Assembly (NCBI RefSeq): GCF_044324875.1
Contig: NZ_CP172185.1
Reading direction: 5' to 3' (one strand)
Source: Escherichia coli
Lineage (GTDB): Bacteria; Pseudomonadota; Gammaproteobacteria; Enterobacterales; Enterobacteriaceae
DNA length: 64,000 bases
The translations under genes were made by a program, and so were the position numbers. Under the pieces are notes generated by a model. The model was not told the origin of the DNA. It did not search any database and was given only the letters and a program-made list of their open reading frames with translations. This document shows positions 47,574-64,000 of the stretch, in pieces (the first letter of the stretch is position 1; every line of letters begins with the position of its first letter).

Positions 47574-49574
47574 TCATCCTTGTTGCTGAAGCATGGGGAA
47601 TAATTGTTCGCAAAGCAAAACACCGTTATTCATTGCTTCTACCCGTGCCTCGCTTTCTGTATTACGAAATTGTGCCAACACATGTGCCAGCCGATAAAAA
47701 CCGACCGCGGTGAGGTCATTCGCCAGCAACTCTGCCTGACCAATAGCACTCTGTTCCTGATAGCGCCAGCCGTTATGGAGCAGTTGAATAAGTAACGCCT
47801 GGCAGCGCATCAGCAACTGATGAGCGGTAGACGGCACAGGCAAAACGCTGGCAGAAGGTAGCGGTGCCACAGGCGTAGTTTCTGCGTCCAGAGCCCAGGT
47901 ACGAGTCTTTGTCATCATTACCTGTGGTTCCAGTGTCAATTGCCCCTCTACAAAACTGACAAAGCCAGAAACCATACTCACGGGGTCCTCTGTTTGTTGT
48001 AACAGAGCTGCCATGCGTTCAACAGCAAAGGGCGAACAGGCAGAGGCTGGTAGGGATAATGTCAGCACGTTATCTTCACCTTCGCCGCTGATTACCTCCG
48101 CATCCAGCGTCTGGCGGCTGCTATCCCAACCGAGTGAAATACACTCAGCGACTGGCAGAATAAATAAGTTATCCACCTGATTAAGAGGCCGTATGCAGGC
48201 GGGGGGACGCTGGCGTAAATATTCCCGCAAAGCCACAATGCCCGGCTGGCGCAATGGCGCGCTCAACATTTGCCAGGCGTCTGGCGACAGCGGCACAACA
48301 CTACTCAAGCGGTTGCGGGTAGCTAACAACAGCTCGCCATCGGCACTGCGTTTTGCTGCTTGTGAAACAATTTGCCCACCTGCCAGTGCGCCAGCCTGAA
48401 AACTAAATAGCCGACGTTTTGCCGCAGGAGCGTTTTCTTGTTCGCTTCTCGGCCAACTACGCGAAAGGTGCAAAATACTGCCGGTGTCGGGATCGGTGAA
48501 CCAGATGCGTAAACCATACTGCTCAATATCCTGCCAGCAACGCATACCTAAAGACACCAGCCGCAGATGATCAAGCTTTGCTTCTCCGGCAATGCCAGCG
48601 CCAACGACCGTGCGCCACGGCACATGAGGAACTTCACCAACACTGTCGCGCCGGGCCATCTCTTGTGCGCAATTTAATCGACTGTTTAATGCCGCAAGCT
48701 GACGTAAGCATTCTCCGGCATGATAGTGACTGGCGCGGGCGTGGAAGGCATCAACGCTGGCGCGCAGTTGCCATAGCGATTCACTCACCCATCGCCAGTT
48801 GCAGCGTTCCGCTGCTTGCTGCGCGCGGCTGAAAGCGGCCTCGTAGTGAATAAGCGGCTGGCTGATGCCGCTCAGCCATAATGCCTGGCTTAGTTGCTGA
48901 ACATATTGACGACACGCGTTGCCCTCTTCGCTGGCAAACGGATCGTCAGATGATGTGACGTGTTCGCTGCGCATCTGCCAGATTAAATGAGTAAATTCCG
49001 CTTGCTGAGTTTTGGCCTCGACGAAGGCCTGCACAGCCAGTACGACATGTTCGCAAAGTGTGCCGTCAATACAATCACAACGGGCGAAACGAATACTGCT
49101 GCGGGAATAAAAACGCACATCGCTCATCGGTAAGCGGGCAGAGGGAATTTCGCCCGGCGTACAGAACAACTCAATGGTGATGCCTTTAGCGACCAGCGCC
49201 TGTGCGCGTTTGCGGGTGGCATCGGGAAGGGTAGCCAGTTCTTCCAGCCAGATTGCCGGATCCCACTCTTCTTCTTTTTCCGTAGGCTGGGTGGTGGCGC
49301 AAAGTCGCTGATAACTTAAAACCAGCATCACGCGATGGCGGCACATGCCGCTGGCCCCGCAGCTGCACTGAGCCTCTTTCAGTGCCTGACCGCTCGCCAG
49401 CTGGGTACGGACACCGTCACTGAAGGTGGCGATTAAAGCGCCGTTCTCATGACTGATTTCCGGGACGTTGCCATTTTCCAGTTCTTTAAGGCTGCGCTTA
49501 ACAAAACCGGCATTGCTTAACGCCGTCAGTGCCTGCGGTGTCAGTTCTAATAATTCCGGACGTAGTGAATTCAT
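47574..49574 (-). CDS. yehQ: YehQ, SWIM zinc-finger protein
   Basis: CxC...CxH motifs (AQCSCGASGMCRHRV; ARCDCIDGTLCEHVV); start MNSLRPELL overlaps yehP stop (ATGA); start uncertain. Confidence 0.75.
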   Translation of the reverse strand: MNSLRPELLELTPQALTALSNAGFVKRSLKELENGNVPEISHENGALIATFSDGVRTQLASGQALKEAQCSCGASGMCRHRVMLVLSYQRLCATTQPTEKEEEWDPAIWLEELATLPDATRKRAQALVAKGITIELFCTPGEIPSARLPMSDVRFYSRSSIRFARCDCIDGTLCEHVVLAVQAFVEAKTQQAEFTHLIWQMRSEHVTSSDDPFASEEGNACRQYVQQLSQALWLSGISQPLIHYEAAFSRAQQAAERCNWRWVSESLWQLRASVDAFHARASHYHAGECLRQLAALNSRLNCAQEMARRDSVGEVPHVPWRTVVGAGIAGEAKLDHLRLVSLGMRCWQDIEQYGLRIWFTDPDTGSILHLSRSWPRSEQENAPAAKRRLFSFQAGALAGGQIVSQAAKRSADGELLLATRNRLSSVVPLSPDAWQMLSAPLRQPGIVALREYLRQRPPACIRPLNQVDNLFILPVAECISLGWDSSRQTLDAEVISGEGEDNVLTLSLPASACSPFAVERMAALLQQTEDPVSMVSGFVSFVEGQLTLEPQVMMTKTRTWALDAETTPVAPLPSASVLPVPSTAHQLLMRCQALLIQLLHNGWRYQEQSAIGQAELLANDLTAVGFYRLAHVLAQFRNTESEARVEAMNNGVLLCEQLFPMLQQQG

Positions 49575-50707
49575 GACTGAAGATTCTCCGCAAGCCATGA
49601 TGCCAGCTCGCCCGGTGTCATGGCGGCTATTTGTGCGCCGACATTAACCAGCGCCTGGGCCGTATCGTGGTCATAGCAAGGTGTTGCGGTGCTATCGAGC
49701 GCCGCCAGTCCCAGCACTTTGATGCCGCTCTGGACACACTTTTTCACCTGTTGCGTCAGTAATGATGATGAACCCCCTTCGTAAAAATCGCTCACGAGGA
49801 TAATGACGCTTTTCGCTGGTTGTTCAATAATTTGCCGACCATATTCCATGGCACTGGCGATATTGGTTCCGCCGCCTAATTGCACTTTCATTAATAACTC
49901 TACCGGATCGGCAACATCTGCCGTGAGATCAACCACGCTGGTGTCAAACGCCACCAGATGGGTACGAATACCGGGTAACTGCCATAAACAGGCCGCCATC
50001 ACCGCTGAGTGGATCACCGAGTCCACCATTGATCCGCTTTGATCAACCAGTAAGACCAGTTGCCATTGTTCGCTTTGGCGTTTAATGCGGCTGTTAAAGC
50101 GGGGGGATTCGATATACAACTTGCCGTGTTGCGGGTGCCAGTGTTGCAGGTTGGCGCGCAGGGTACTTTTGAAATCAAAGTTTCGCGCCAGTGGAATAAA
50201 TGAGCGGCGACGGCGATCGCGGACACCAGAAAAAGCCTGACGAACTTCCTTTGCCAGTCGCGCCATAATTTCTTCAACAACCTGGCGTACTATCCGGCGG
50301 GCGGCAGCCAGTACTTCGGGATTCATCAGATGTTTGGTGTGCAAAACGGCGCGTAGCAGGCTTTCAGAAGGCTGCATACGTTCCAGCACGTCGAGATTCG
50401 TCACCACATCTTCAATGCCATAGCGCAGCACGGCATCGCTTTCCAGCCGCTCGATCACCTGTTGCGGAAACAGCGTGTGAATACTGTTGATCCACTCAGG
50501 GGTGGTGAGATTTGAGCAACCTAATCCACCGGAGCGTTCACCACGCTGGAGCCGTTCAGGATCGCGCCCATACAGCCACTCCAGCGCGTGGTCTATCTGC
50601 CGGGCATTGTCATCCAGCCCACAAAGGGTCGTTTCTGCCGCTTCGCCAAGAATTAATCGCCAGCGTTGTAGCTCACGGGTGGTCAGAAGATCGTTCAGTT
50701 CAGACAT
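49571..50707 (-). CDS. yehP: YehP, von Willebrand factor A domain protein
   Basis: 378 aa from MSELNDLL; vWA MIDAS-like LLVDQSGSM. Confidence 0.8.
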   Translation of the reverse strand: MSELNDLLTTRELQRWRLILGEAAETTLCGLDDNARQIDHALEWLYGRDPERLQRGERSGGLGCSNLTTPEWINSIHTLFPQQVIERLESDAVLRYGIEDVVTNLDVLERMQPSESLLRAVLHTKHLMNPEVLAAARRIVRQVVEEIMARLAKEVRQAFSGVRDRRRRSFIPLARNFDFKSTLRANLQHWHPQHGKLYIESPRFNSRIKRQSEQWQLVLLVDQSGSMVDSVIHSAVMAACLWQLPGIRTHLVAFDTSVVDLTADVADPVELLMKVQLGGGTNIASAMEYGRQIIEQPAKSVIILVSDFYEGGSSSLLTQQVKKCVQSGIKVLGLAALDSTATPCYDHDTAQALVNVGAQIAAMTPGELASWLAENLQS

Positions 50708-63043: not shown

Positions 63044-63055
63044 TGCTAAATCCTT

Positions 63056-64000
63056 TTAATCAAACAGTGATTCAATATCGTTAATCAGCTCGCTAGCGGT
63101 GATGTTGTCGAGCACGGAGAAAGTGGGGGAGGATTGTTTACCGTAGCGATCATAAGAGGCAGTGATTTTTACGCTTTCGACAGGCAGCAGGTCGCTATAC
63201 CCCGTTTCGCCATAAATTAATGAAAAATGTTCTGTTTCAAGTTCGAGAGCGCCATAAGGGGTAGATTTGCGCATCGCATAGACGCTGCCGCTTTCTTCCA
63301 GACGTTGCCAGCCTCTGCGTTCCAGCCCGACAATGCGACCAGCCTGGCAGAGCCGTCCGTCCCAGTGTGACAATTCATGGACATTACGTTCGTTATCAGC
63401 AAGGTGGTAACTACCACGTTCGAGCTGTTGGAAAGGGGGAAGCAGTTCGTAATCAACGTAAATTTGCCTGAATGCAGCGGCGGATTCAGGGGGGATTTCC
63501 AGCACATGCGGTATACCGATGTTTCCTGCTGGCAGCGTGAATAACTCATCCTGCGCATCGCTGTAAGTGCTGTCTTCTGCGACCCGGAAGCAGGCAATCA
63601 GCGTGTTTTCCTCAGTATATACCCCCCATAACAGCCGTCGGGTTAAGTGACGTACCAGCGGATGCTCCACCAGGAACAGGCGGAACTGTTCTGCCGTCCA
63701 GCGTCTGCGCTGGCACATAGCCTGCTCCAGACGATCAACCTGCTGGCTGGCAATGGCGCGCACATCTTTCTTCAATTGTTTAAAGAGGTTAACGGCGTCA
63801 GTTGCCAGTGTTTTATCATCGCTCTGGTTTTGTTTGGGTAAATCTTTCAGGACCTTTCCGTTTGCATCGCGCACTACAGGTTTTAAGGTTTCGTCAAAAC
63901 CAACGGTGAATTGGCGTGGGCCGAAATCAAGTGTCAGCGAGCCACTGCTATCAAGCCCTAAATCTGGAGCCAGGCGGTCTTCCAGTTCAGCCATAGTCAG
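63056..64000 (-). CDS. C-terminal part of a third yehI/molR-family paralogue (runs off window end)
   Basis: Last 312 codons align with the C-termini of the two neighbours (ELEDRLAPDLGLD..., FSVLDNITASELINDIESLFD). Confidence 0.8.
   Translation of the reverse strand: MTMAELEDRLAPDLGLDSSGSLTLDFGPRQFTVGFDETLKPVVRDANGKVLKDLPKQNQSDDKTLATDAVNLFKQLKKDVRAIASQQVDRLEQAMCQRRRWTAEQFRLFLVEHPLVRHLTRRLLWGVYTEENTLIACFRVAEDSTYSDAQDELFTLPAGNIGIPHVLEIPPESAAAFRQIYVDYELLPPFQQLERGSYHLADNERNVHELSHWDGRLCQAGRIVGLERRGWQRLEESGSVYAMRKSTPYGALELETEHFSLIYGETGYSDLLPVESVKITASYDRYGKQSSPTFSVLDNITASELINDIESLFD

Follow-up and report, generated by a model that had tools for sequence, protein, structure and literature searches.

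A cassette of five linked gene families around the MoxR ATPase YehL in Escherichia coli and distant bacteria

What do the large yeh genes grouped around the MoxR-type ATPase gene yehL do, and do the DUF4132 genes that accompany them belong to the same system? The question is raised by a 64,000-nucleotide (nt) stretch of Escherichia coli DNA (contig NZ_CP172185.1, assembly GCF_044324875.1), called the window below. Here yehL, yehM, yehP and yehQ follow three tandem DUF4132 genes, which we call P1, P2 (molR-like) and P3 (yehI-like) (Table 1). The locus itself is not new: its genes are annotated, and YehL has given its name to one of the seven MoxR subfamilies since 2006 according to the literature. 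An original prediction made from the letters of the window alone had described a tight yehLMPQ operon next to three paralogues, reminiscent of conflict or chaperone systems and lacking an established function. This last statement still holds. No function was found in the literature for the cassette; DUF4132 is rarely mentioned there, DUF5682 (the family of YehM) was not found, and searches by gene name are swamped by author initials. The literature searched also held no paper on a five-component definition including DUF4132, on a TraB-like fold of DUF5682 or on an allelic cassette in the solenoid. The genes are nevertheless among the largest uncharacterised ones in E. coli. Of the MoxR subfamilies that take their name from an E. 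coli protein, YehL alone still lacks a function, and molR belongs to the small set of genes that have a known SOS box but no assigned role.

A first answer comes from gene neighbourhoods. A YehM profile was scanned against 100,044 species-representative genomes and found relatives in 499 of them. All linkage counts refer to the best 80 of the loci found with YehM, annotated with our own open reading frame (ORF) calls and with jackhmmer. YehL is present in 79 of these loci, the vWA protein YehP in 77, YehQ in 75 and DUF4132 in 71, and the missing components are mostly lost where a contig ends. The loci belong to Enterobacterales, Xanthomonadales-type Gammaproteobacteria, many Betaproteobacteria, Myxococcota and Actinobacteria. 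The cassette consists of exactly five families (MoxR ATPase, DUF5682, vWA, SWIM and (WGR-)DUF4132), linked in four phyla-level groups. One to three (WGR-)DUF4132 genes usually come first, followed by yehL, yehM, yehP and yehQ, with all genes close together and pointing the same way. Burkholderia has its WGR-DUF4132 gene downstream of yehQ, and on a conjugative plasmid of Sinorhizobium a DUF4132 gene sits between those of the DUF5682 and vWA proteins with overlapping stop and start codons. The DUF4132 gene is thus seen at three operon positions. Linkage that is retained through three gene orders is strong evidence for functional coupling, and the DUF4132 genes, which had been taken as neighbours only, are an integral fifth component. 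Clustering of the 2582 other ORFs flanking the 80 loci gave no sixth conserved partner, and homologues of yehK, which lies inside the E. coli locus, are confined to Escherichia loci (L001-L003 and L006). Since neither a sixth partner nor an external client gene is linked, the clients of the ATPase must lie inside the cassette. Gamma- and Betaproteobacteria, Myxococcota, Actinobacteria and Alphaproteobacterial plasmids all have the five families together; the conserved neighbourhood outside E. coli, on which the original prediction depended, is clearly present.

The components are not equally conserved. YehL comes first, with a ratio of nonsynonymous to synonymous substitution rates (dN/dS) of 0.017 relative to K-12, followed by YehP, YehM and then DUF4132 and YehQ, the last being the least conserved (dN/dS 0.11). 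The Walker A motif of YehL (GEPGTAKS), its Walker B motif (FEE, with E156 and E157), the sensor-1 residue N203 and the arginines R218/R219 are kept in at least 95% of 77 homologues. YehL thus exhibits the Walker A, Walker B, sensor-1 Asn and Arg finger that characterise AAA_5-type ATPases (PF07728). It also shows weak NCBIfam matches to GvpN, MadB and McrB. Two genes downstream in the same operon, yehP encodes a protein with a strong VWA_CoxE match (PF05762, 6.7e-71, residues 151-372) and a weak NCBIfam match to cobaltochelatase. Its metal-ion-dependent adhesion site (MIDAS), of the form DxSxS...T...D, is composed of D222, S224, S226, T281 and D307 and is kept in at least 95% of 76 homologues. 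YehP is presumed to be the adaptor of the YehL ATPase. YehQ carries weak Pfam SWIM matches at residues 59-88 (independent E-value 0.0036) and 160-183 (0.12), where CxCxnCxH signatures can be read as QCSCGASGMCRH and RCDCIDGTLCEH. Of these motifs only the first (C70, C72, C78, H80) is conserved, with at least 95% of 72 homologues retaining it.

The DUF4132 proteins are the large and variable part of the cassette. Pfam searches with identical proteins assigned AAA_5 to YehL, DUF5682 to YehM, VWA_CoxE/VWA_2 to YehP, a faint SWIM to YehQ, DUF4132 to P3 and WGR plus DUF4132 to P2, whose DUF4132 match (8e-50) covers residues ~977-1162. P1 also bears a WGR domain. The P2 domain is recognised by PF05406, and the family profile matches the WGR domains of 2ra8 (2.6e-22) and of PARP3 (3.6e-4). 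WGR domains of PARP proteins bind DNA breaks. Such a domain is found on 62 of 79 long DUF4132 proteins. The structure model of YehI (predicted local distance difference test, pLDDT, 87.9) begins with ~900 residues of alpha-solenoid of the HEAT/ARM type, and the alpha/beta region that follows at the C-terminus carries nearly all invariant residues. The family defined by this C-terminal region is large, with 5069 representative clusters. The middle paralogue is indeed, as had been proposed, an intact molR-like gene with an N-terminal WGR domain. In K-12 there are two paralogues only; its molR is split between yehF, which is a WGR fragment, and the pseudogene yehH, and its YehQ is shorter, with 614 amino acids (aa). 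The proposed trio of ~1200-aa paralogues is also real, except that the third is only partial because the window ends within it; the P1 fragment matches residues 954-1265 of a 1265-aa WGR plus DUF4132 protein of E. coli C4 with 99.7% identity.

P1, P2 and P3 share 32-44% amino-acid identity with one another. A recent tandem duplication was considered as the origin of the three genes and rejected because of this low identity; judging from their sequences, the paralogues are ancient. Two or three full-length DUF4132 copies are found in 18 of the 80 loci. The lineages with such expansions are unrelated (Escherichia, Klebsiella, Massilia, Duganella, Chitinibacter, Rhodanobacteraceae, Glycomyces and Lentzea), and three DUF4132 genes were also seen on one metagenomic contig. 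Variation between alleles adds to that between paralogues. The YehI proteins of the window and of K-12 are 84% identical overall, but residues ~400-690 just 30-70%, with saturated synonymous divergence. In the window this variable cassette corresponds to nt 57203-58072 (870 nt), and it has a full-length match in 48 of 5426 complete E. coli genomes, its edges alone aligning elsewhere. Such a rare and divergent central segment suggests that solenoid-segment alleles are exchanged by recombination. The P2 gene is covered over at least 80% of its length in 689 of the 5426 genomes. The molR remnant of K-12 (yehF plus yehH; locus L086, 3475-7270) is a mosaic in which the first 197 nt resemble P1 (87%) and the 3' 1.8 kb resemble P2 (92%), with a middle that is 64-80% identical to P2. 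This is consistent with a recombination between P1 and P2 that left two paralogues instead of three. In the nearest relatives of the window, Ecol_316 (locus L093, 10421-10907) and C4 (locus L001, 14055-17686), yehI is 'frameshifted' by a 13-nt indel; the window copy (~59000-59500) is intact.

YehM provides a candidate enzymatic activity. Its structure model is confident (pLDDT 88.8, predicted template modelling score 0.84), and the modelled N-terminal domain shares its alpha/beta fold with the TraB/TIKI/ChaN/EreA superfamily. The other structural matches of the model are to helical repeats and AAA+ domains. Residues G8-x-x-H11, E35 and G199-G200-x-H202 are invariant in 45 sequences. By inspection, they correspond in position to G38-x-x-H41 (GSIH), E67 (VEAD) and G249-x-x-H252 (GALH) of YbaP, the TraB protein of E. 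coli. YehM therefore resembles the superfamily that includes TraB/PrgY/GumN, TIKI, ChaN, erythromycin esterase and RRSP in its succession of strand-GxxH, strand-E and strand-GxxH, all invariant. It has no significant sequence-profile match to those proteins and adds ~420 residues of helical repeats, and its activity is putative. The relationship is predicted at the level of fold and motif, so that YehM is described here as TraB-like in fold, not filed as a member of the family, and its N-terminal domain is regarded as a putative hydrolase.

From these observations we infer how the five components might work together. YehL would be a MoxR AAA+ ring ATPase that forms with YehP the usual ATP-driven remodelling pair, the MIDAS of YehP gripping an acidic residue on a partner. 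A candidate for this residue is an invariant Glu of DUF4132, found in the SE(L/A) motif of the final helix. The WGR-solenoid-DUF4132 proteins would be the likeliest clients and would dock onto the machine by their conserved C-terminal region. Their WGR domain may bind nucleic acid as that of PARP binds DNA breaks, and the variable surface of the solenoid would give specificity, which is proposed as the reason for the tandem paralogues and the allelic cassettes. YehM, with its TraB/TIKI-like putative hydrolase domain, and YehQ, with its SWIM fingers, may act as output or regulatory subunits. The whole would constitute a threshold switch for a conflict or stress response to damaged or foreign DNA, wired to SOS in its E. 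coli version. We assign a probability of roughly 0.4 to this reading, namely a self-contained MoxR-vWA switch acting on diversified nucleic-acid-sensing scaffolds with a role in conflict or stress. What speaks for such a role is that the cassette is diversified, patchily distributed, carried on plasmids, silenced and often lost. The published control of molR and yehLM, the induction of WGR and DUF4132 genes in Deinococcus and a stand-alone DUF4132 gene beside a helicase, all described below, count in its favour as well. The cassette is mobile: plasmid-borne YehM homologues are found in Rhizobium, Streptomyces, Agrobacterium, Methylosinus, Iodobacter and Sinorhizobium. On the mobilizable Iodobacter plasmid pl1 (76.8 kb, MOBP; locus L091, 1345-18749), the cassette lies between insertion sequence (IS) elements and a type I restriction-modification system. 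One DUF4132 copy of this plasmid is split by IS elements, and the type I restriction-modification genes, with a PDDEXK nuclease gene, are immediately downstream. A search for phage carriage of YehM homologues gave one weak match only.

The cassette can be compared with the MoxR-vWA ternary conflict systems, which are computational predictions comprising VMAP, iSTAND, FtsH and beta-propeller classes (Kaur, Burroughs, Iyer and Aravind, eLife 2020, PMC7159879). Both have a MoxR plus vWA core derived from CoxD/CoxE, extra conserved components and a diversifying component, and both are found in Myxococcota and Actinobacteria. The P-loop of YehL (GxxxTAKS) is a variant noted in the FtsH and beta-propeller classes (PMC7159879). 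However, the third components of the cassette are DUF5682 (TraB-like plus HEAT), SWIM and WGR-DUF4132 instead of VMAP, iSTAND, FtsH or propeller proteins, and no recognised effector or effector-associated domain is present. Its diversity arises through paralogues and allelic cassettes, not through retroelements or domain shuffling, and it is also common in the unicellular Enterobacterales. The paper describing the ternary systems (PMC7159879) does not mention YehL, SWIM, WGR or TraB. The experimentally studied pairs CoxD/CoxE, CbbQ/CbbO, NorQ/NorD and RavA/ViaA provide a second comparison. They too associate an AAA_5 MoxR protein with a MIDAS-bearing vWA protein, YehP falls in the CoxE vWA family, and the expected mechanism would be common to all: client capture by the MIDAS followed by ATP-driven remodelling. 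These pairs adjoin their client enzyme (CO dehydrogenase, Rubisco or NO reductase), whereas the cassette has no conserved external client gene and has three further large proteins obligatorily linked. Once the five families are seen as one mobile cassette across distant phyla, a series of separate 'y-genes' becomes one machine that can be tested in the best genetic model organism, and the predicted hydrolase domain of YehM and the strain-hypervariable sensor-like subunit are specific added targets. If a role in defence or damage surveillance is true, the cassette would contribute a new architecture and possibly a new type of effector; if a chaperone role is true, it would reveal a new class of clients for MoxR-vWA pairs.

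Several observations weigh against a conflict or stress switch and call for caution. The eight window proteins gave no match in PADLOC-DB 2.0 at E-values up to 0.01. Among 40 proteins flanking ten diverse loci, PADLOC returned one convincing match (LmuA), in a sample too small for a statistic. No nuclease, pore, TIR, toxin-like or other known effector domain was detected in the cassette proteins. The ATPase, vWA and SWIM modules that had suggested a conflict or chaperone system are present, SWIM as a faint match, but this part of the proposal finds no PADLOC match, no visible enrichment of defence genes nearby and no effector domain in its favour. The yehLMPQ genes are present in 5202 of 5426 complete E. 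coli genomes (96%) with 95-99% identity. This near-universal presence at one fixed chromosomal site is more like that of a core function than of a typical defence island. The TraB-like reading of YehM also has no significant match in profile comparisons. YehM compared with YbaP by hhalign, alone and as a family alignment, gave a probability of 0.3-1.7% with a shallow YbaP alignment made of close relatives only; Pfam recognised DUF5682 and no TraB family in the 45 YehM members, and a profile search of the PDB with YehM returned nothing relevant. When LexA-type boxes (CTG-N10-CAG, or the actinobacterial GAAC-N4-GTTC) were sought upstream of the cassette in other taxa, convincing cases were limited to Escherichia and Klebsiella, so SOS control is lineage-specific. 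Lastly, DUF4132 proteins also occur without the other four genes. One stand-alone DUF4132 protein of 1673 aa is encoded beside a DinG/XPD-like helicase (locus L089, 10001-17155), with no MoxR, vWA, DUF5682 or SWIM gene nearby, suggesting that DUF4132 proteins can work outside the cassette, again in a DNA-related context.

A stronger version of the conflict switch would make the cassette a new class of immunity or surveillance. Interchangeable WGR-HEAT receptors would sense foreign or damaged nucleic acid, or a phage protein, and would be diversified by paralogy and cassette exchange in the manner of NLR/Avs proteins. The MoxR-vWA motor would load or unlock them, and YehM would be the output as a TIKI/TraB-type protease. 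This version is doubtful. If it were true, the effector chemistry of YehM would be one not yet seen in bacterial defence.

Within the window, all ORFs of the cluster are on the minus strand, and the transcription order is P1, P2, P3, yehK, spacer, yehL, yehM, yehP and yehQ (Table 1). Gene starts were adopted from the RefSeq annotation of E. coli C4. The ORFs, their coordinates and the overlapping junctions all agree with the gene calls and the tight yehLMPQ operon of the original prediction. A 10-nt spacer separates yehL from yehM, the ATG of yehP overlaps the stop codon of yehM (8 nt), and yehP in turn shares 4 nt (ATGA) with yehQ. The gaps between paralogues are equally short (12 nt for P1/P2 and 9 nt for P2/P3). 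Every gene of the cluster is under purifying selection relative to K-12 (dN/dS 0.02-0.30), including yehK (0.23). A hairpin with a 12-bp stem (55595-55624) occupies the 60-nt gap between the stop of the yehI-like gene and the start of yehK; it is terminator-like on the plus strand only.

Table 1. Features of the yeh locus in the window, in order of increasing coordinates
Feature	Coordinates	Strand	Description
yehQ	47574-49574	-	666 aa; N-terminal pair of SWIM zinc-finger motifs (CxCx5CxH); long C-terminal part uncharacterised
yehP	49571-50707	-	378 aa; CoxE-type vWA with intact MIDAS metal site
yehM	50700-52979	-	759 aa; DUF5682; predicted TraB/TIKI/ChaN-like alpha/beta domain (~1-340) and C-terminal helical repeats
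yehL	52990-54078	-	362 aa; MoxR-type AAA+ ATPase (AAA_5)
spacer	54079-55261		AT-rich, 1.18 kb, GC 42%; separates yehK from yehL; outside the five-gene system
yehK	55262-55567	-	101 aa; no Pfam domain; homologues in Escherichia loci only
yehI-like P3	55628-59272	-	1214 aa; without WGR; alpha-solenoid and C-terminal alpha/beta region including DUF4132
molR-like P2	59282-63043	-	1253 aa; N-terminal WGR, solenoid and C-terminal DUF4132; intact
P1 (third paralogue)	63056-64000 (window end)	-	last 312 codons only (63056-63994)

The spacer upstream of yehL has an identity of its own. Rfam recognises two OrzO-P small RNAs on the minus strand, at 54190-54265 and 54800-54873 (101 and 92 bits for a gathering score of 60). 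The plus strand carries the same 29-aa ZorO ORF twice (54511-54600 and 55119-55208), and identity between the two repeat units is 89%. By sequence, the spacer is made of two tandem type I toxin-antitoxin units, zorO-orzO and zorP-orzP, of the kind described in enterohaemorrhagic E. coli (PMC3919570). Each unit has divergent promoter-like sites and hairpin/T-run terminators, and the OrzO hairpin and T-run stand just upstream of yehL. Since promoters and terminators intervene in this way, E. coli probably transcribes the DUF4132 genes separately from yehLMPQ. The insert is carried by 3388 of the 5426 complete genomes and K-12 is without it. RefSeq annotates no feature at this spacer in C4 or Ecol_316. 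The literature adds that yehL and yehM are up-regulated in hns/stpA mutants and that H-NS is bound at the intergenic region, which fits the 42% GC of the spacer. It further reports that the molR promoter is activated by BglJ-RcsB and lists molR among the genes with a known SOS box. The original prediction was silent on the two zor-orz loci, on this published SOS, BglJ-RcsB and H-NS regulation and on the old 'molybdate regulator' label behind the name molR.

The SOS box introduces the first alternative, a repair or processing machine for the cell's own DNA, induced by SOS and comparable to p97 with SPRTN or to break sensing of the PARP type. WGR and SWIM would bring it to DNA-protein adducts, nicks or breaks; a DNA-bound protein would be pulled out or unfolded there by the AAA+/vWA pair and cleaved by the TraB/TIKI-like YehM. 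Besides the published molR box, a LexA-type box AACTGGATAAAATTACAGGG is located directly upstream of the P1 ATG in E. coli C4 (locus L001), and a near-identical one lies 24 nt upstream of the first DUF4132 gene of Klebsiella grimontii. For the window, the P1 promoter under SOS and BglJ-RcsB control falls past its end, beside metG. According to the literature, one WGR and one DUF4132 protein of Deinococcus are strongly induced on DdrO depletion, as part of the radiation-desiccation response. The stand-alone DUF4132 gene beside a DinG-like helicase, the homology of WGR to the break-binding domain of PARP, the putative hydrolase domain of YehM and the near-universal presence of the locus in E. 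coli are in keeping with the same idea. It leaves unexplained the hypervariable allelic cassettes, the repeated expansion of paralogues, the plasmid carriage and the patchy distribution among species (499 of 100,044 genomes). Moreover, K-12 lives with a broken molR and a truncated yehQ, terminators cut off yehLMPQ from the SOS-controlled genes of E. coli and H-NS silences it, and LexA-type boxes were not found outside Escherichia and Klebsiella. A repair machine of this kind appears unlikely.

A chaperone for metal or cofactor insertion, of the CoxD/CoxE or chelatase type, is slightly less likely again. The ~1200-aa DUF4132 protein would be to the ATPase and vWA proteins what BchH is to BchI/BchD, or CobN to CobS/CobT. 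The old name 'molybdate metabolism regulator' would fit; molR was reportedly named, by Lee and colleagues in 1990, from a molybdate-utilisation mutant. The VWA_CoxE and cobaltochelatase matches of YehP agree with this proposal. So does the overall plan, which the cassette shares with Mg-chelatase (BchI/BchD/BchH) and cobaltochelatase (CobS/CobT/CobN): an AAA+ protein, a vWA protein with MIDAS and a very large subunit (1200-1400 aa). The likeness is architectural only. The large subunit is a WGR-HEAT-DUF4132 protein with a HEAT/ARM solenoid fold that matches DUF4132 alone in Pfam and shows no similarity to CobN or BchH. There is no tetrapyrrole context, and no molybdenum, tetrapyrrole or metalloenzyme gene is conserved beside the cassette at the 80 loci. 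In addition, molR is a pseudogene in K-12, and WGR, SWIM and hypervariable paralogues would be unexpected for a cofactor chaperone.

The nearest solved relatives of YehL suggest a third alternative, a factor that puts together or takes apart a large cellular complex, for example the ribosome, with DUF4132 and YehM as adaptors in the way that Rix1, Ipi1 and Sda1 serve Rea1. By sequence, the best solved relatives of YehL are the AAA modules of Midasin (7e-10 to 6e-9, ~40 bits), and 2r44 is also among the solved structures. The cassette shares with Midasin/Rea1 an AAA protein of the MoxR/dynein clade, an intact MIDAS of the kind that pulls on partners, and solenoid scaffolds that recall the HEAT-repeat adaptors of Midasin. 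However, the similarity of ~40 bits remains within what is shared by the MoxR/dynein AAA clade, and Midasin, a eukaryotic protein dedicated to pre-60S maturation, has its six AAA modules in one giant polypeptide. The patchy distribution of the cassette, and genes that are dispensable, silenced and often disrupted, argue against core biogenesis and make this explanation improbable.

That the locus is a cryptic, decaying remnant without present function in E. coli is the least probable explanation: yehLM are silenced by H-NS, K-12 has a molR pseudogene and a truncated yehQ, yehI is frameshifted in C4 and Ecol_316 and, according to the literature, a resistance transposon sits in the locus of an ST131 sublineage, but all window genes are intact, the purifying selection on every one of them counts against decay, yehLMPQ is kept in nearly all complete E. 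coli genomes and the catalytic motifs are conserved across phyla.

The recent history of the locus is not uniform along the window. Compared with Ecol_316, the window is 100% identical over 54001-64000, which includes the DUF4132 genes, and 99-99.6% identical in btsSR/yehRS, but 93-99% across yehLMPQ (47501-53900), where the best match among the 5426 genomes reaches 98.0%. This difference between the operon and the adjoining DUF4132 genes suggests that it is the operon itself that was replaced; it looks like a recombinant import from an unsampled lineage. At lower coordinates, synteny with K-12, C4 and Ecol_316 stops at 43739, 289 bp upstream of btsS, and mlrA falls outside the window. The region 36000-43738 matches prophage tail-fibre, DinI-like, YadA-like and IS66 genes, which suggests that a prophage or island was inserted between mlrA and btsS.

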